The notes under the pieces: model-generated | Told to the model about the DNA's origin: nothing | Seen by the model: the letters and a program-made list of their open reading frames with translations, nothing else | Databases searched by the model: none | Shown: in pieces, positions 4,822 through 13,551 of the stretch | How the letters are laid out: each line of letters starts with the position of its first letter | Numbering within the stretch: the first letter of the stretch is position 1 | Position numbers and translations under genes: made by a program | Source: Escherichia coli | GTDB lineage: Bacteria > Pseudomonadota > Gammaproteobacteria > Enterobacterales > Enterobacteriaceae | Assembly (NCBI RefSeq): GCF_009931435.1 | Contig: NZ_CP043414.1 | Reading direction: 5' to 3' (one strand) | DNA: 64,000 nucleotides

Positions 4822-6105
4822 GTGAACACATTTTCAGTTTCCCGTCTGGCGCTGGCATTGGCTTTTGGCGTGACGCTGACCGCCTGTAGCTCAACACCGC
4901 CCGATCAACGTCCTTCTGATCAAACCGCGCCTGGTACCTCTTCTCGCCCGATTCTGTCGGCAAAAGAAGCGCAGAATTTCGATGCTCAACACTATTTTGC
5001 GTCCCTGACGCCAGGTGCTGCAGCGTGGAATCCTTCCCCGATTACTCTGCCTGCACAACCTGACTTTGTTGTCGGTCCGGCGGGTACTCCGGGTGTAACG
5101 CATACCACGATTCAGGCGGCGGTAGATGCGGCAATTATCAAGCGTACCAATAAGCGCCAGTATATTGCCGTGATGCCTGGTGAATATCAGGGAACGGTGT
5201 ATGTCCCTGCCGCTCCGGGTGGAATTACCGTTTATGGTACAGGTGAAAAACCGATTGATGTGAAGATTGGGCTTTCCCTTGATGGGGGCATGAGCCCTGC
5301 CGACTGGCGTCACGATGTCAATCCGCGCGGCAAATACATGCCCGGTAAACCGGCATGGTATATGTACGATAGCTGCCAGAGCAAACGCAGCGACAGTATC
5401 GGCGTTCTCTGCTCTGCGGTCTTCTGGTCACAAAACAATGGCCTGCAACTGCAAAACCTGACCATCGAAAACACGCTGGGTGATAGCGTAGATGCGGGTA
5501 ACCATCCGGCGGTGGCACTGCGTACTGATGGCGATAAAGTGCAGATCAACAACGTCAACATTCTCGGTCGTCAGAATACCTTCTTTGTGACCAACAGCGG
5601 TGTACAGAACCGTCTGGAAACCAATCGTCAACCACGTACGCTGGTGACGAATAGCTATATTGAAGGGGATGTGGATATCGTTTCTGGTCGCGGCGCAGTG
5701 GTGTTCGATAATACCGAATTCCGCGTGGTGAACTCCCGTACCCAGCAAGAAGCGTATGTGTTTGCACCGGCTACGCTGTCTAACATCTATTACGGTTTCC
5801 TCGCCGTAAACAGCCGCTTCAATGCTTCCGGTGATGGCGTGGCGCAACTGGGCCGCTCGCTGGATGTTGATGCCAATACCAACGGTCAGGTGGTGATCCG
5901 TGATAGCGCCATCAACGAAGGTTTTAACACGGCTAAACCGTGGGCCGATGCGGTGATTTCCAATCGTCCGTTTGCGGGTAATACTGGCAACGTTGATGAT
6001 AACGACGAAGTACAGCGTAATCTGAATGACACTAACTACAACCGCATGTGGGAATACAATAACCGCGGCGTGGGTAGCAAAGTGGTTGCAGAGGCGAAGA
6101 AGTAA
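4822..6105 (+). CDS. ybhC: outer-membrane lipoprotein YbhC (pectinesterase-fold acyl-CoA thioesterase)
   Basis: 427 aa ORF with GTG start and lipoprotein signal peptide ending in lipobox LTAC. Confidence 0.9.
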   Translation: MNTFSVSRLALALAFGVTLTACSSTPPDQRPSDQTAPGTSSRPILSAKEAQNFDAQHYFASLTPGAAAWNPSPITLPAQPDFVVGPAGTPGVTHTTIQAAVDAAIIKRTNKRQYIAVMPGEYQGTVYVPAAPGGITVYGTGEKPIDVKIGLSLDGGMSPADWRHDVNPRGKYMPGKPAWYMYDSCQSKRSDSIGVLCSAVFWSQNNGLQLQNLTIENTLGDSVDAGNHPAVALRTDGDKVQINNVNILGRQNTFFVTNSGVQNRLETNRQPRTLVTNSYIEGDVDIVSGRGAVVFDNTEFRVVNSRTQQEAYVFAPATLSNIYYGFLAVNSRFNASGDGVAQLGRSLDVDANTNGQVVIRDSAINEGFNTAKPWADAVISNRPFAGNTGNVDDNDEVQRNLNDTNYNRMWEYNNRGVGSKVVAEAKK

Positions 6106-6119
6106 AAGCGATTAACTTT

Positions 6120-6322
<203 letters not shown>

Positions 6323-6337
6323 TTCACATGGCGCTTT

Positions 6338-8599
6338 TTACATCTGACGGTTTTTATTGAAGTTAATCAAACTACCCGCCTTGATAATCTCGCGCTCTTC
6401 AGCAGTCAGACTTTCCATATAGAGCGTAATCTCTGTTACCGGCGCATCTTCATGGATCACATAACCTTTAAACGTCGTCCCCGGATTATCCAGCGCCGCT
6501 TTAATGCCAGGGATGTAAATGTAATCGCCCACTTCAAAGTTCGGTGCTTCCGCCATTTGCAGCGGTAACATCCCCCAGTTGATGACGTTAGAACGGTAGC
6601 GTTTAGTCGCGTATTCCTCGGCAATATTCGCCAGACCGCCAATCACACGCTGGCAACTCGCCGCCTGCTCACGCGCAGAACCATCGCCTGGTTTCACCGC
6701 ATAGACCATGCTGCCAATTTCAGTTTGCAGCGGATCAATATGCTCCTGACCAGCAATCTGCTTAATGCGCGCAAACACCTCTGTCAGCTCGCTGACATTG
6801 CCCGCCAGACGCTGATTTTCCAGCTCGGCAGTCGCTTTACTTCTGCCAACATAGCCCGGATCACGGCGTAACAGGGTAAACTCCGCCAAACCAATCGGAT
6901 TTGAACGATAAGAAGAGGTTTCACCGGAAGGAATCAATTCGTCGGTGGTGGTCACTTCGTCGAGGATCTTCGAGCACACTTTGAGGACGATATTGTCAGT
7001 CAGCGCCCCCAATTCCGGCCAGTCTTTGATGTTCGGTCCGTAGATCAGCGATTGCTGGGTCGCCCCTTTCACAAAGCCCTGATAGACGCGATTTTTATAC
7101 GGCGTGACATCGAAGGCATACTCCGGCACGATGTCCCAGCAGTCCAATTCACTTGCAGAGGTTAAATAACCACCGTTTGCGGCTGTTGCAGCGATAGAAC
7201 GGGCATCCATCAACGCCACCGCTGACATCTGACCGTTGGCTGGCTTAGAGCCTTCGCGATTCGGGAAGTTACGCGTGGTGTGGCGAATACTCAAACCGTT
7301 GTTGATTGGCGTGTCGCCCGCGCCAAAGCATGGGCCGCAGAACGCGGTTCTGATGATTGCGCCTGCGCCAATCAAATCTGCTACCACGCCTTTTTTGGCT
7401 AAATCCATAAACACCGGCTGTGATGATGGATAAACCGCCAGCGAGAAGGTGTCATTGCCACAGGATTGACCGCGCAGCGCATTAGCTGCAGCGATAACGT
7501 TTTCATAGTTACCGCCAGAACAGCCCGCGATAATCCCCTGCTGCACTTTCAGGCGACCATTTTCGACTTTATCCAGCAATGAGAGTTTGGCTTTCCCGTG
7601 CGCCACGCGCTCGGACTCAATTTCAATCTCACGCAGAATGTCAGTCAGGTTCTGGTTCAGCATGTCGATTTCATACACGTTGCTCGGGTGGAACGGCAGC
7701 GCAATCATTGGTTTGATGGCACTCAAATCAACGCTGATGCAGCCATCGTAGTACGCCATCGGTTGAGGGTTAAGCTGACAATAATCCTGGCCGCGACCGT
7801 GCAGCGCCAGCCAGTTATGGACTTCTTCATCAGTTTGCCAGACAGAACTTAAACAGGTCGTTTCAGTGGTCATAACGTCAACGCTGTTACGGAAATCGGT
7901 AGAGAGCGCCGCAACACCGGGACCTACGAATTCCATCACTTTGTTTTTGACGTAGCCGTTTTTGAACACGGCACCAATGATAGCCAGCGCCACATCCTGC
8001 GGCCCCACATACGGCGCAGGTTTTCCGGTCAAATGCACCGCAACAACTCCCGGATAGTCGATATCCCAGGTGTCATTAAGCAGCTGTTTTACCAACTCAC
8101 CGCCACCCTCACCGACTGCCATTGTCCCTAATGCACCGTAACGGGTGTGGCTGTCTGACCCGAGGATCATTTTGCCGCCTCCTGCCATCATCTCACGCAT
8201 ATATTGATGGATGACCGCAATATGTGGAGGCACAAAAATACCGCCATAACGCTGCGCTGCCGATAAACCAAAAACATGGTCATCACCGTTAATGGTGCCG
8301 CCGACGGCGCAGAGTGAGTTATGGCAGTTGGTCAGCACATACGGCAGCGGGAAACGTTCCATACCGGACGCTTTAGCGGTCTGTACAATACCAACAAAGG
8401 TAATATCGTGAGAGGCTAATGAATCAAACTTAATTTTAAGTTTGTCCATATTTCCGGACGTATTATGAGAAGAGAGAATAGACCAGGCAATAGTGCCTTT
8501 TTTGGCTTCTTCTTTTTTAATTTCGCCGCTGAAATGTTCTTCGGCAATTATTTCGTTATTACTGGCGAGAAACACGCCTTTTTCAGATAACTTGATCAT
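6338..8599 (-). CDS. ybhJ: aconitase-family protein YbhJ
   Basis: ORF 6338-8623 (761 aa); start placed at Met9 ([10 protein letters not shown]) giving 753 aa as in K-12. Confidence 0.88.
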
Positions 8600-8654
8600 C
8601 AAATGCTCCAGATATCTGCGCACCGTTAAGTGCGCAGAAAGATAATAAATGGAT

Positions 8655-8779
8655 ATACTCTAAATAATTCGAGTTGCAGGAAGGCGGCAAGCGAGTGAAT
8701 CCCCAGGAGCTTACATAAGTAAGTGACTGGGGTGAGCGAACGCAGACGCAGCACATGCAACTTGAAGTATGACGAGTAT
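8655..8779. repeat. ERIC (IRU) element between ybhI and ybhJ
   Basis: Contains gtgaatccccaggagcttacat and aagtaagtgactggggtgagcg, the two ERIC primer core sequences. Confidence 0.75.
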
Positions 8780-8781
8780 AT

Positions 8782-10215
8782 TTACAGCATGTTCCAGCCG
8801 ATCAGCATATTCCACCACCACACGCCGAGGGTGATATGTACCAGGAAGGTTAATATCGTCAGTACCGCACCGACCAACCACCAGGATTTAATATCGTTAT
8901 AGCCTACGCCGAAGATGACCGGACCTGCCGCACCGCCATAGTGAGTAACCATGCCGCCATAGGAGTTGGAGAAAAGCAGCGCCAGCGCAGTTAACATTAA
9001 CGGTGCGCCGGAGACGTTCGCCAGCATGGCAAATACCGGTAACATGGCAACGATATAGGCACTACCGGAAGCAAAGAAATAACGCACGATGATGCTAAGG
9101 AAAATAATAACGAAGAAAGCTACGTTACCATGGCCGTCAAATGCCAGGTTATTTTTAAAGACTTCAGCTAACCATTCGAAGAATTTAACTTTCGATAATA
9201 AGGAGCTTAAGCCGATAATACCGCCGTACCAGATTAAGGTATTCCAGCCGCCTTTATTTTTCACCACGTCTTCCCAGGTAACGATCCCCAGCAGCAGCAT
9301 GGTCGCCATAACAACGATTGCCACAGTGGATTCATCTACCCCGAGCGTTTTACTGAAAATCCAGCCCAACAGCGCCAGCACAAAGACACCGAGCAGCATT
9401 TTTTCGCGGATTTTCATCGGCCCCAGTTCAGCAAGGCCCGCTTTGGCGATGGTTTTGTTATCCACTTTCTTAATTTCTGGCGGATACATGGTGTAAATCA
9501 CCAGCGGAGTGACCAGCAGCATAATGATGCCCGGCAATCCAGCAGCCAGCGCCCATCCACCCCAACTAATTTGTAGGTGCAGAATATCATTGATCATTTT
9601 CAGCGCCAGAATGTTCCCCGCCATTGCGGTAAAGAACATATAGCTGGTGGTTTTAGTGACCATGTAAATGGACATCATCAGGTAATGTCCAACACGACGT
9701 GGGCTTTTTTCAGGTTCTGACCCCAAAGCCACCGCCACGCTGTTGATGATCGGTAACACAATGCCGCCCGCACGCGCGGTGTTAGACGGTGTTGCCGGAG
9801 CCAGTACCAGATCGAGGAATACCGTAACGTAACCCAGCCCCAGGGTAGTGCTACCAATTTTGCCAATCAATAAATAGGCAATACGTTTACCTAACCCTGT
9901 GGTCACAAATGCGGCGCTTAAGGTAAACGCCGAGAACACCAGCCAGGTGGTACCTGAAGAGTAACCGCTTAATACGGCGGTAGTCTTAAATGCACCATCG
10001 GATAAATTACCGACCACCACCATTGAGGCAGCAACGGCAATTAACAGTACGACAGGTTCCGGGAAAGGCTTGATAACCAGCCCGACGATTGCTGCCAGGT
10101 AAATACCAAAAAGCACCCACGCCAGTTCGCTTAATCCTGCCGGAGCTGGCATAAAGCCAATAATACATGGGATCGCTAATATCAGAATTAGCTTCCATAA
10201 CGATTTTTTATTCAT
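8782..10215 (-). CDS. ybhI: DASS-family anion transporter YbhI
   Basis: 477 aa polytopic membrane protein ORF. Confidence 0.9.
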   Translation of the reverse strand: MNKKSLWKLILILAIPCIIGFMPAPAGLSELAWVLFGIYLAAIVGLVIKPFPEPVVLLIAVAASMVVVGNLSDGAFKTTAVLSGYSSGTTWLVFSAFTLSAAFVTTGLGKRIAYLLIGKIGSTTLGLGYVTVFLDLVLAPATPSNTARAGGIVLPIINSVAVALGSEPEKSPRRVGHYLMMSIYMVTKTTSYMFFTAMAGNILALKMINDILHLQISWGGWALAAGLPGIIMLLVTPLVIYTMYPPEIKKVDNKTIAKAGLAELGPMKIREKMLLGVFVLALLGWIFSKTLGVDESTVAIVVMATMLLLGIVTWEDVVKNKGGWNTLIWYGGIIGLSSLLSKVKFFEWLAEVFKNNLAFDGHGNVAFFVIIFLSIIVRYFFASGSAYIVAMLPVFAMLANVSGAPLMLTALALLFSNSYGGMVTHYGGAAGPVIFGVGYNDIKSWWLVGAVLTILTFLVHITLGVWWWNMLIGWNML

Positions 10216-10289
10216 TTAAAATCCTGTTCTTTCTGTATGACTTATACAGAAGTCCTTTGTTAATTGCCCTTATCACGACAACGACCTTT

Positions 10290-11342
10290 TCAGGGAAGAT
10301 AAACTTCACCGGAAAATATTTTTCTGGTCGTCCGAATAACAGATGCGCGTAAGGTTGTGGCATCCTGACCTTCATTGCTTAAATGAACGTCGAGCGCACC
10401 ACTGGGATGTTCAATATTGATATTGCCATATCCTACAGAAGGGACGATTTGTCGGGTGACGGTGCCTTCCAATGCACAGCTACTGGAAATGGCAATAGCA
10501 CCGGTTATCGCCAGCGCACGATGGCAGGAGTGCGGCATAAAATAACGCACATTAATTGCCCCGCCTTTCTGCGCAGGAGAAATAAGCACAGGTTTAGGGA
10601 TAACCATATTACTGACATCACCTAAGCCCATTGCTTTACCCGCTTGTAGGCGGATAGATTCAATGCGGGCTAATAATGTTTTGTCGGCATCCAGTTCCGC
10701 CGGTAATTCATAGCCTGTTTTACCCAAATAATCAGCCGGAATAATGACGACTGGCATCGCCATATCGATACAGGTCACTGGAACATCGTCAAAATAATCA
10801 ATCTGATTATCAGTCGGGAAGACTTTTCCGGTTTTTGTTCCGGCGGCATTCAGGAAAGTGAGCGCAACCGGTGCGGCAGTACCCGGTACGCCGTCAATTC
10901 TGGCGTTACCCTCGTACTCGACAACACCATTTGGCGTTTGCACATCAGCTTCGATGAACGTACCCGTATTGACGTTGCGGATACATACGCGGGTAACTGG
11001 CGAAGTCGCTGCAATCAAACCATTTTCAATAGCAAATGCCCCAACGCCAGACAGCATATTGCCGCAGTTAGGCGTGGTATCGACACGTTGCTCATGGACG
11101 ATAACTTGAGCAAACAGATAATCGACATCAGCACGCGGATCGCTGGAACGGCTAATTATGGCGACTTTACTGGTCAGTGGATTACCGCCGCCAATACCGT
11201 CAATTTCCAGATCGTTACCGGAACCCATAATTGCCATCAATATTTTATCGCGCTGCGTTTGATCTTCGGGTAGATGTTCCGCTAACAGGAACGCGCCCCT
11301 CGAGGTTCCACCTCGCATCATCACGCAGGGTATTTTTTTCAT
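10290..11342 (-). CDS. ybhH: PrpF/AcnD-accessory family isomerase YbhH
   Basis: 350 aa ORF, first gene of ybhHIJ, divergent from ybhD. Confidence 0.9.
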   Translation of the reverse strand: MKKIPCVMMRGGTSRGAFLLAEHLPEDQTQRDKILMAIMGSGNDLEIDGIGGGNPLTSKVAIISRSSDPRADVDYLFAQVIVHEQRVDTTPNCGNMLSGVGAFAIENGLIAATSPVTRVCIRNVNTGTFIEADVQTPNGVVEYEGNARIDGVPGTAAPVALTFLNAAGTKTGKVFPTDNQIDYFDDVPVTCIDMAMPVVIIPADYLGKTGYELPAELDADKTLLARIESIRLQAGKAMGLGDVSNMVIPKPVLISPAQKGGAINVRYFMPHSCHRALAITGAIAISSSCALEGTVTRQIVPSVGYGNINIEHPSGALDVHLSNEGQDATTLRASVIRTTRKIFSGEVYLP

Positions 11343-11525
11343 AATAATGCCCTCAATTTAAAAACATAACTTATTGCGATATGGTTACATTAAGGGCAAA
11401 GCATCTCTAATGACTTTAGCTCAACGATTAATAACATTTTTTCATTAATTTAAGTTGGCTAAATGCAGTTAAAATTTTTAACGGCCTGTCATCCAAAATC
11501 GTCGCATCCATTTTTCGGAGTAATA

Positions 11526-12479
11526 ATGAAGCATGAATTATCAAGTATGAAGGCATTTGTCATACTGGCAGAGTCCAGTTCATTTAACAATGCTGCTAAA
11601 TTACTCAATATTACGCAACCTGCATTAACGCGAAGAATAAAAAAAATGGAAGAGGATTTACATATTCAACTATTTGAGCGTACAACTCGCAAGGTTATGT
11701 TAACAAAAGCAGGAAAAAGGTTGCTCCCGGAGGCGCGGGAATTAATAAAGAAATTCGATGAAACGCTTTTTAATATTCGTGATATGAATGCTTATCATCG
11801 TGGTATGGTGACGTTAGCGTGTATTCCGACCGCAGTATTTTATTTTTTACCACTGGCAATCGGTAAATTTAATGAGCTGTATCCCAATATTAAAGTGCGG
11901 ATTCTGGAACAAGGCACGAATAATTGCATGGAATCGGTGCTGTGTAACGAATCAGACTTTGGCATAAACATGAACAACGTCACAAATTCATCCATTGATT
12001 TTACCCCACTGGTCAACGAGCCGTTTGTGCTGGCCTGTCGGCGTGACCATCCATTGGCCAAAAAGCAGCTTGTAGAATGGCAGGAGTTAGTAGGTTACAA
12101 AATGATTGGCGTACGCTCCTCCAGCGGCAACCGACTTTTGATAGAACAACAGCTGGCCGACAAGCCCTGGAAGCTGGACTGGTTTTACGAAGTGCGTCAT
12201 CTTTCGACGTCATTAGGACTGGTGGAGGCGGGACTGGGGATTTCGGCGCTTCCTGGTCTGGCAATGCCCCATGCACCCTATTCTTCGATTATTGGTATCC
12301 CGCTGGTGGAACCGGTTATACGTCGGACATTGGGGATTATTCGCCGCAAAGATGCCGTGCTTTCTCCGGCAGCAGAACGCTTTTTTGCCTTGCTGATTAA
12401 TTTGTGGACTGACGATAAAGACAACTTGTGGACCAATATCGTCGAACGCCAAAGACATGCGTTACAGGAAATGGGGTAA
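11526..12479 (+). CDS. ybhD: LysR-family transcriptional regulator YbhD
   Basis: ORF 11463-12479; start placed at ATG 11526 (MKHELSSMKAF) giving 317 aa; N-terminal HTH. Confidence 0.88.
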   Translation: MKHELSSMKAFVILAESSSFNNAAKLLNITQPALTRRIKKMEEDLHIQLFERTTRKVMLTKAGKRLLPEARELIKKFDETLFNIRDMNAYHRGMVTLACIPTAVFYFLPLAIGKFNELYPNIKVRILEQGTNNCMESVLCNESDFGINMNNVTNSSIDFTPLVNEPFVLACRRDHPLAKKQLVEWQELVGYKMIGVRSSSGNRLLIEQQLADKPWKLDWFYEVRHLSTSLGLVEAGLGISALPGLAMPHAPYSSIIGIPLVEPVIRRTLGIIRRKDAVLSPAAERFFALLINLWTDDKDNLWTNIVERQRHALQEMG

Positions 12480-12519
12480 TACTCCGGCGCAGGAGATACT
12501 GCGCCGGGTGAATCAGCGG

Positions 12520-13551
<1,032 letters not shown>

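Follow-up and report, generated by a model that had tools for sequence, protein, structure and literature searches.

We analyzed the ybhHIJ gene cluster of Escherichia coli and its divergently transcribed regulator gene ybhD within a 64,000-nucleotide stretch of contig NZ_CP043414.1 (assembly GCF_009931435.1), referred to here as the window. The evidence tips us slightly toward reading ybhD/ybhHIJ as a normally repressed module for the use of exogenous aconitate, chiefly the plant acid trans-aconitate. In such a module YbhI would import trans- or cis-aconitate, with a C4-dicarboxylate (succinate or malate, for example) probably leaving the cell in return; YbhH would convert trans- to cis-aconitate by shifting the double bond, with a Lys/Cys 1,3-proton transfer as in PrpF-family enzymes; and YbhJ would be an oxygen-labile [4Fe-4S] aconitase of the gut-anaerobe type, turning cis-aconitate into citrate or isocitrate. 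Citrate would then enter the tricarboxylic acid (TCA) cycle or, under anaerobic conditions, pass to citrate lyase. YbhD would repress the operon in the absence of the acid, whose arrival would relieve repression. We place the module at the aconitate/citrate node because the isomerase with its regulator, the hydratase, and the carrier each lead there when traced independently. A more specific proposal, to which we give somewhat less than even weight, is that YbhJ is a silent third aconitase of E. coli, that it belongs to an uncharacterized class (with Cys-His where other aconitases have the Asp-His dyad) that provides the TCA-branch aconitase of many human-gut Lachnospiraceae, Collinsella, and Negativicutes, and that it has been joined in Enterobacteriaceae with an aconitate isomerase and a CitT-like carrier to consume dietary trans-aconitate. 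An earlier note, made from the letters alone, had suggested the uptake and isomerization or hydration of a tricarboxylate or dicarboxylate; that suggestion has held up and is narrowed here to aconitate (trans or cis) as the leading candidate.

Profile searches bear out the family assignments that the note had made for all four proteins, with every score far above its curated cut-off. YbhH is a PrpF-like isomerase (PF04303, 553.7 bits over its full length), YbhI an anion transporter of the DASS (divalent anion:Na+ symporter) family, CitT/TtdT subgroup (TIGR00785, 552 bits against a cut-off of 198.6; PF00939, 647 bits), and YbhJ an aconitase-family hydratase (PF00330 Aconitase, 295.8 bits, residues 41–470; PF00694 Aconitase_C, 28.4 bits, residues 638–684; NCBIfam NF008503, 1533 bits), in which the catalytic domains 1–3 precede the swivel domain 4. 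YbhD has the DNA-binding and substrate domains of a LysR-type regulator (PF00126 HTH_1, 74 bits; PF03466, 158 bits) and lies on the plus strand, divergent from ybhHIJ on the minus strand.

Relatives of YbhJ were collected by a library-wide HMMER search and a scan of 100,044 species genomes; open reading frames (ORFs) were called in the 80 best loci, their neighbors were clustered, and recurrent neighbors were identified by Pfam/NCBIfam. The closest relatives outside the Enterobacteriaceae (65%–71% identity) belong to gut anaerobes, including Enterocloster, Hungatella, Blautia, Butyrivibrio, Megasphaera, Acidaminococcus, many Collinsella, and Ellagibacter, and they match the same NCBIfam equivalog as YbhJ, NF008503 "hydratase" (1378 bits). 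The gene order YbhJ–citrate synthase–isocitrate dehydrogenase is found in five loci (L020, L022, L036, L037, and L093), with gaps of ~15 nt where checked (L022). Citrate synthase adjoins the YbhJ gene in six more (L029, L033, L039, L041, L077, and L090), three loci have YbhJ–isocitrate dehydrogenase pairs (L018, L019, and L078), and in four the YbhJ gene adjoins citD-citE-citF (L018, L023, L031, and L082). A gene that sits between citrate synthase and isocitrate dehydrogenase would be an aconitase by position, and on this ground we expect YbhJ to be a genuine aconitase belonging to a distinct clostridial/gut-anaerobe clade. Across the 375 columns that are invariant in 17 orthologs from such contexts, the YbhJ of the window is identical at 362 and differs at 13, where 12 of the changes are conservative and the last, S577L, is strain-specific; the ligand and catalytic residues are all invariant.

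By sequence, the best match of YbhJ in the PDB is pig mitochondrial aconitase (E = 6.6e-35). Cys360, Cys421, and Cys424 of YbhJ correspond to the pig cluster ligands Cys358, Cys421, and Cys424 and are invariant in 25 orthologs, and Ser641, Arg643, Arg443, Arg448, His131, Asp149, His151, and Glu246 align with pig catalytic or ligand residues. In pig numbering, the residues kept are His101, His147, Asp165, His167, Glu262, Arg447, Arg452, Ser642, and Arg644; pig Arg580 could not be aligned with YbhJ. Two sequences with 39% identity (P0268 and P0273) were dropped as YbhJ representatives, having neither the Cys ligands nor the catalytic motifs. The neighborhoods of P0241 and P0273 (both on short contigs) and of the Acidaminococcus fermentans ortholog held no informative neighbors, and the Collinsella gene lies in an uninformative context between dnaK/dnaJ/hspR and clpB. 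No PrpF or DASS gene was found near YbhJ orthologs in the 77 loci outside the Enterobacteriaceae. The family model NF008503 names what is probably the aconitase of many gut anaerobes merely a "hydratase."

The isomerase leads to the same node by another route. The nearest relatives of YbhH outside the Enterobacteriaceae are Pseudomonas and Dickeya proteins (62%–63% identity), and identity within the whole YbhH/aconitate-isomerase clade is 62%–69%. In Pseudomonas, a LysR gene is followed by the isomerase, a DctA-type carrier, a CitMHS citrate:H+ symporter, and an OprD porin, with no other enzyme; in Dickeya, a LysR gene is followed by the isomerase, a major facilitator superfamily (MFS) carrier, and an FAA-family hydrolase, and then by citCDEFX and acnB. 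An isomerase partnered only by importers must deliver a product that enters central metabolism directly, as in the logic of tarR/tarAB, the LysR-regulated trans-aconitate assimilation genes described in 2024 in Bacillus velezensis FZB42 (PMC11495376). The same 2024 study assayed PrpF-family proteins from trans-aconitate-assimilating isolates. Four Pseudomonas enzymes (AI-7-1, AI-16-1, AI-32-1, and AI-41-1) had 88%–101% of the activity of the aconitate isomerase TarA in the forward direction (PMC11495376, Table S4), and PrpF-type paralogs ending in VPGDSF had 2%–4% (forward reaction; PMC11495376, Table S4). The primers for the four active enzymes encode the termini QRIPCV(L) and (F/A/L)(R/Q)RLAG (PMC11495376, Table S2). 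The Pseudomonas YbhH-like proteins begin with MQRIPCVL and end with SQRLAG, and at the 5' end of one YbhH-like gene (L009), 18/18 bases agree with the AI-32-1 primer. Because the Pseudomonas termini match the primers of active enzymes, we consider the YbhH clade probably to be that of the active aconitate isomerases and predict, from this match at the termini, that YbhH is an aconitate isomerase of the PrpF superfamily (TarA/TbrA/Adi1 type). Regulator and isomerase are conserved as a pair in Pseudomonas and Dickeya, and YbhH likewise has an importer and a divergent LysR regulator beside it.

The ybh locus resembles tarR/tarAB in its divergent LysR regulator, in having a PrpF-superfamily aconitate isomerase as first enzyme (for ybh a predicted one), and in carrying an importer in the operon. 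It differs in that the importer TarB belongs to the MFS and YbhI is a DASS carrier, in that a dedicated aconitase-family protein, YbhJ, is added, and in that TarR activates whereas YbhD represses. A TarA homolog with ~40% identity is listed for Shigella sonnei, E. albertii, E. fergusonii, and Edwardsiella tarda (PMC11495376, Table S6); reading this value as the identity between YbhH and TarA assumes that YbhH is the only PrpF-family protein in the listed species.

Databases give YbhH another function. It scores 511.8 bits on the NCBIfam model NF033377 "OMA_tautomer" (cut-off 440) and as annotated would be an isomerase of 4-oxalomesaconate (OMA), acting on the ring-cleavage products of gallate and protocatechuate with YbhJ in place of LigJ/GalB. 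The corresponding enzymes LigU and GalD (protocatechuate 4,5-cleavage and gallate; PDB 6P3H/J/K) have the same fold and catalytic Lys/Cys pair: YbhH is 46% identical to LigU, an enzyme of lignin catabolism (PDB 6P3J; E = 1.8e-93), and its K59 (in LTSKVA) and C93 (in NCGN) line up with the positions changed in the K66M and C100S structures of LigU. OMA is aconitate with an oxalyl group for one carboxyl, so the chemistry would be analogous. The 46% identity to LigU nonetheless lies well outside the range seen inside the YbhH clade. Neither a ring-cleavage dioxygenase nor a LigJ/GalB hydratase or LigK/GalC aldolase was found within 6 kb of the locus in E. coli; genes of the pathway were likewise not found in the Klebsiella, Edwardsiella, Pseudomonas, Dickeya, and Providencia loci, the Pseudomonas and Dickeya neighborhoods have no aromatic-cleavage genes, and lig/gal genes are absent from the inspected neighborhoods. 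OMA is moreover formed inside the cell by O2-dependent ring cleavage, which would leave an importer without purpose. NF033377 itself appears over-broad, because it also names the Pseudomonas clade whose termini match active aconitate isomerases. We regard an OMA role as very unlikely, and the label "4-oxalomesaconate tautomerase" for YbhH is probably wrong. The model gives this name to the entire YbhH/Pseudomonas clade, which appears to consist of aconitate isomerases. A structure of YbhH has been deposited as PDB 6OTV under the name "putative isomerase."

The carrier YbhI is 33% identical over its full length to the citrate:succinate antiporter CitT and 34% identical to the tartrate:succinate antiporter TtdT, and 35.7% identity to the spinach 2-oxoglutarate/malate translocator has been reported (PMC9068703); it is thus equidistant (33%–36%) from citrate, tartrate, and 2-oxoglutarate/malate carriers. 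Gene context says more. In Providencia rustigianii, a 65%-identical YbhI ortholog comes directly after citC-D-E-F-X-G, the place occupied by CitT in E. coli, and the next gene is YbhH-like (61% identity). The YbhI ortholog of Serratia fonticola (65%) comes after citE-F-X-G, a small hydrolase, and AcnB (TIGR00117, 1420 bits). An aconitase or isomerase together with a YbhI carrier in a citrate-lyase operon points to aconitate (or isocitrate) rather than citrate as the imported acid. From these orthologs in the citT position we predict that YbhI would exchange a tricarboxylate for succinate. The Snodgrassella YbhI neighborhood held no informative neighbors. The likeness extends to both anaerobic carboxylate-fermentation loci of E. 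coli: in citCDEFXG-citT (citrate) the YbhI ortholog takes the place of its paralog CitT after citG in Providencia and S. fonticola, and the L-tartrate locus (ttdR with ttdA-ttdB-ttdT) shares with ybh a divergent LysR gene, an Fe-S hydro-lyase, and a DASS antiporter. Where those loci have citrate lyase or a fumarase-type tartrate dehydratase, however, ybh has an isomerase and an aconitase-type hydratase, and succinate exchange by YbhI would be carried over from them.

The main rival keeps the import–isomerize–hydrate logic and changes the acid: the substrate would be 2-methylaconitate, homoaconitate, itaconate/citraconate/mesaconate, or a compound of the dimethylmaleate type, and the specificity of YbhJ would no longer be that of its anaerobe orthologs. 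Established systems of this kind are AcnD/PrpF, acting on 2-methylaconitate in the 2-methylcitrate cycle (Shewanella; PMC5690661), and Mii/DmdAB, acting on methylitaconate and dimethylmaleate in nicotinate fermentation (Eubacterium barkeri); both, like ybh, pair a PrpF-family isomerase with an aconitase-family Fe-S (de)hydratase on an unsaturated acid. YbhH matches Mii (PDB 3G7K) with 236 bits, an Edwardsiella ortholog is named "2,3-dimethylmalate dehydratase large subunit" in one database, and YbhJ has unusual active-site substitutions. A further change relative to the pig enzyme, Gln72 to His, is shared with a standard PRK07229 aconitase. The ybh locus differs from both established systems: YbhJ is a single chain in a separate clade (NF008503), YbhH reaches only 183 bits on the PrpF equivalog model (cut-off 441), and no prp or nicotinate-pathway genes lie near the locus in E. 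coli. Against another acid, YbhJ orthologs repeatedly adjoin citrate synthase, isocitrate dehydrogenase, and citrate lyase; YbhI and YbhH orthologs adjoin citrate lyase, which points to a citrate/aconitate skeleton; E. coli YbhJ shares the great majority of the invariant positions with the anaerobe orthologs; and the nearest assayed relatives of YbhH isomerize aconitate. On this balance a different unsaturated acid seems improbable, if the most serious of the competitors. One metagenome locus (L013, 199–10202) has three aconitase-family genes, for a YbhJ ortholog (60% identity), a YbhJ paralog, and a standard PRK07229 aconitase, and further genes for an Iso_dh enzyme, a PrpF protein of 376 aa, and a LysR regulator; its makeup recalls the Acfer_1968–1973 region listed for A. 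fermentans. YbhJ is not simply redundant in L013, since a standard aconitase stands beside it, a point that sits well with the other-acid proposal.

Regulation has been studied for YbhD. Deletion of ybhD strongly up-regulates ybhH, and a YbhD site was found by chromatin immunoprecipitation with exonuclease digestion (ChIP-exo) (PMC9068703); YbhD thus represses ybhH. That study also reports control by Nac, and it labels the regulon "L-malate utilization related," the sole functional proposal so far, after a growth phenotype of the ybhD deletion in glycerol M9 that appeared only with added L-malate (PMC9068703). The phenotype and the identity of YbhI to the spinach 2-oxoglutarate/malate translocator are what speak for a malate regulon. 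Yet malate catabolism has no role for a PrpF-type allylic isomerase or an aconitase-type hydro-lyase, YbhI is as far from the citrate and tartrate carriers as from the malate carrier, and the phenotype fits equally well if malate is the counter-substrate of a de-repressed antiporter. Under the aconitate reading the phenotype would be explained as well, because YbhI would exchange aconitate against a C4-dicarboxylate. We see little prospect that the regulon serves L-malate utilization, and consider that proposal very unlikely.

Over its full length, YbhD shares 55% identity with the regulator of the Pseudomonas isomerase cluster and 59% with that of the Dickeya cluster, and it is only distantly related to TtdR (26% over the helix-turn-helix region). 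In the divergent ybhD-ybhH control region we read a candidate YbhD operator of the T-N11-A form, ATTAAT-N11-ATTAAT, which is identical in the orthologous Dickeya intergenic region and nearly so in E. tarda. A sigma-70 consensus scan of 6100–12700 gave no site in the ybhD-ybhH intergenic region and fewer promoter-like sites across the scanned span than in shuffles. A longer ybhD ORF starting at 11463 finds no support in homolog alignments. The positions of the genes and of the other features are collected in Table 1.

Table 1. Genes and noncoding features of the ybhD/ybhHIJ locus, in window coordinates
Feature	Position	Strand	Length	Description
ybhJ	6338–8599	minus	753 aa	Aconitase-family [4Fe-4S] hydro-lyase
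ybhI	8782–10215	minus	477 aa	DASS-family anion transporter, paralog of CitT and TtdT
ybhH	10290–11342	minus	350 aa	PrpF-family 1,3-allylic isomerase
ybhD	11526–12479	plus	317 aa	LysR-type regulator
ERIC element	8653–8781		129 nt	Begins right after the ybhI stop codon
Stem-loop	8615–8638	minus		Perfect 10-bp stem (UCUGCGCACU-UAAC-GGUGCGCAGA), from the RNA fold of 8600–8781
ybhD-ybhH control region	11343–11525			Divergent control region; candidate YbhD operator inside
Candidate YbhD operator	11427–11449			ATTAAT-N11-ATTAAT, read from the sequence; T-N11-A form

All four genes are intact at 6338–12479 of the window, ORFs and annotation agreeing. The gene order, the short gaps within ybhHIJ (74 and 182 nt), and the lack of a terminator-like site in these gaps in the scan of 6100–12700 suggest that the three genes form an operon. 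The locus is flanked by ybhC on one side and pgl on the other, as in E. coli K-12 and constantly in the inspected records; the wider flanks are bioA-ybhB-ybhC and pgl-ybhA-modCBA. At least 80% of the locus is found in 5315 of 5426 complete E. coli genomes (~98%), and ybhH is covered in 5322. The earlier note's view that the cluster is backbone rather than accessory is correct within E. coli but does not extend to the Enterobacterales, where the module has a patchy distribution and has changed its place; elsewhere, its parts are found recombined with citrate-lyase operons. Klebsiella aerogenes and Edwardsiella have all four genes together at different chromosomal locations, and in K. aerogenes the module adjoins the oad/citS/citAB citrate-fermentation genes. 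The K. aerogenes locus (L002) has an extra 420-aa DASS/CitMHS-type transporter gene between ybhI and ybhJ (6683–7945), two genes away from citAB-oadGAB-citS.

The allele in the window is unusually divergent, with 95.9% DNA identity to K-12 overall and 90.7% in 7001–7300. A 357-bp ybhJ segment (6992–7348) is matched at ≥95% identity by just 7 of 5374 genomes, the remainder falling at 90%–95%, which points either to a rare lineage or to recombination in this segment. The ratio of nonsynonymous to synonymous substitution rates (dN/dS) between the window and K-12 is 0.013–0.040 for all four genes, at dS of 0.13–0.21, and these values indicate purifying selection on each of them and no decay.

Such selection bears on the proposal that the cluster is a cryptic or decaying relic, with YbhJ inactive or in a noncatalytic role such as redox or iron sensing. 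One paper, with reference to Blank et al. 2002, calls YbhJ a "catalytically inactive paralog" and reports that deletion of ybhJ makes cells sensitive to H2O2 and low in NADPH (PMC4054840). Some E. coli carry in-frame internal deletions of ybhJ, in forms of 634 aa (P0034–P0053) and 648 aa (P0029). The 634-aa form is without roughly residues 418–536, and it should be inactive because Cys421, Cys424, and a further motif are deleted. About 1% of complete E. coli genomes are without the ybhJ segment that holds the Fe-S ligands. One E. tarda strain has ybhI (L004, 6483–7915) split into ORFs of 230 and 260 aa, probably a pseudogene, other E. tarda strains keeping an intact 477-aa protein. The window itself encodes Leu577 (codon 6869–6871) at a position that is Ser in K-12, in the closest complete genome, in E. 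albertii, Citrobacter, Edwardsiella, and Klebsiella, and in all 17 of the anaerobe context orthologs. Finally, the insertion of an enterobacterial repetitive intergenic consensus (ERIC) element parts ybhJ from ybhI. These points favor a relic. Opposed to them are the sustained purifying selection on all four genes, the retention in YbhJ of every catalytic and ligand residue that is invariant among its orthologs, and the presence of a segment with two of the three cluster cysteines in 5369 complete E. coli genomes (~99%). We judge a relic quite unlikely.

The note had also placed an ERIC element between ybhI and ybhJ, and this was confirmed. A 44-nt core at 8695–8738 is exact to the consensus (zero chance matches expected) and equals the sequences of the ERIC1R/ERIC2 primers, and it is enclosed by outer inverted arms of 26 nt each (8653–8678 and 8756–8781). 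The ybhI-ybhJ intergenic sequence recurs at a median of six places per E. coli genome (megablast). It has the features of ERIC elements, also called intergenic repeat units (IRUs): an imperfect palindrome of ~127 bp (here 129 nt), a conserved core, multiple copies, and an intergenic location. Its RNA folds into a strong hairpin (−62.4 kcal/mol, z = −6.4), which may modulate ybhJ expression. The element occupies this junction in K-12 and E. albertii but not in Citrobacter or Edwardsiella, which marks it as an insertion made later and only in Escherichia. A second stem-loop, at 8615–8638, lies between the ERIC element and the ybhJ ribosome-binding site, just upstream of the latter; it has no U-tract and is partly conserved in Citrobacter and Edwardsiella. 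Beyond ybhJ, the ybhJ-ybhC intergenic region (6106–6337) holds two tandem ~100-bp copies of a palindromic unit of the repetitive extragenic palindrome/bacterial interspersed mosaic element (REP/BIME) type, containing GCCGGATAAGGCGTTTACGCCGCATCCGGCACTTATTGTCGGATGCGATGCTGACG, and one hairpin in this region was flagged by the terminator scan.

Several points weigh against the aconitate module. The link from the Pseudomonas proteins to the assayed enzymes consists of six to seven residues per terminus, not of full sequences. The only enterobacterial YbhH-like enzyme assayed, AI-79 of Providencia rettgeri (C-terminus GDVYVP), was inactive (PMC11495376). Judged from its primer, the AI-79 construct starts at RGGTSK, with ~9 N-terminal residues missing. 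We infer what E. coli YbhH, YbhI, and YbhJ do, which way transport runs and how it is coupled, and which compound induces the operon. E. coli is not known to grow on aconitate. The YbhJ clade is known from sequence, with no characterized member, and relative to pig aconitase YbhJ has Asp100 replaced by Cys (Cys92), Asn258 by Val, Asn446 by Thr, and Ser643 by Ala. The L-malate phenotype of the ybhD deletion and the puzzling regulation by Nac also count on this side, as does the description of YbhJ as inactive. Its apparent inactivity in E. coli extracts would plausibly result from YbhD repression and oxygen lability. Blank, Green, and Guest reportedly found in 2002 that deletion of ybhJ left the residual aconitase activity of acnAB mutants unchanged; on an assumption of ours, YbhD repression could be the reason.

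A last difficulty is that a third aconitase beside AcnA and AcnB lacks a clear rationale. trans-Aconitate has long been known to inhibit aconitase competitively (cited in PMC13188880), and one speculation is that this inhibition calls for an aconitase specific to the module. An alternative, also speculative and drawn by analogy with Acidaminococcus, is an anaerobic function together with citrate lyase. A. fermentans converts trans-aconitate by way of citrate and oxaloacetate to pyruvate (PMC3035267, citing Hartel & Buckel 1996) and has several "aconitate hydratase domain" genes beside carboxylate carriers (PMC3035267). It resembles the present case in being a gut organism, in passing from aconitate to citrate and on to citrate lyase, and in carrying a YbhJ ortholog with 67% identity (L071 and L084); it differs in that its trans-aconitate fermentation genes are without genetic assignment.

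The statement in the note that no assigned substrate was known to its author agrees with our search, which found no published assignment in the searchable literature and nothing there that links ybhH, ybhI, or ybhJ with aconitate. K-12 RefSeq names the proteins "putative isomerase," "putative tricarboxylate transporter," and "putative hydratase." A mention of ybhH in a P. chlororaphis preprint refers to a 34%-identical paralog, and the mentions of ybhJ in PMC13192712 are strain genotypes only. The gene cluster was thus already known, while the aconitate hypothesis and the YbhJ clade as an unrecognized aconitase class appear to be absent from the accessible literature. It is a locus ordinary in kind, now with a specific and cheaply testable proposed function. 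To our knowledge, the handling of trans-aconitate by E. coli is known only as detoxification through methylation (Tam).

If the aconitate proposal is wrong, ybhDHIJ stays an ordinary uncharacterized organic-acid operon. These genes are among the remaining unassigned ones of the best-studied bacterium, in which ~98% of genomes carry them. If it is true, E. coli metabolic models would gain a carbon source and a third aconitase, and the label "4-oxalomesaconate tautomerase" would be corrected for thousands of proteins. The gut-anaerobe "hydratase" would receive a proper name, closing a gap in the TCA branch of microbiome reconstructions. It would also link the locus to trans-aconitate, an abundant acid of grasses, cane, and cereals that inhibits aconitase and is connected, via tricarballylate, with disease in ruminants.

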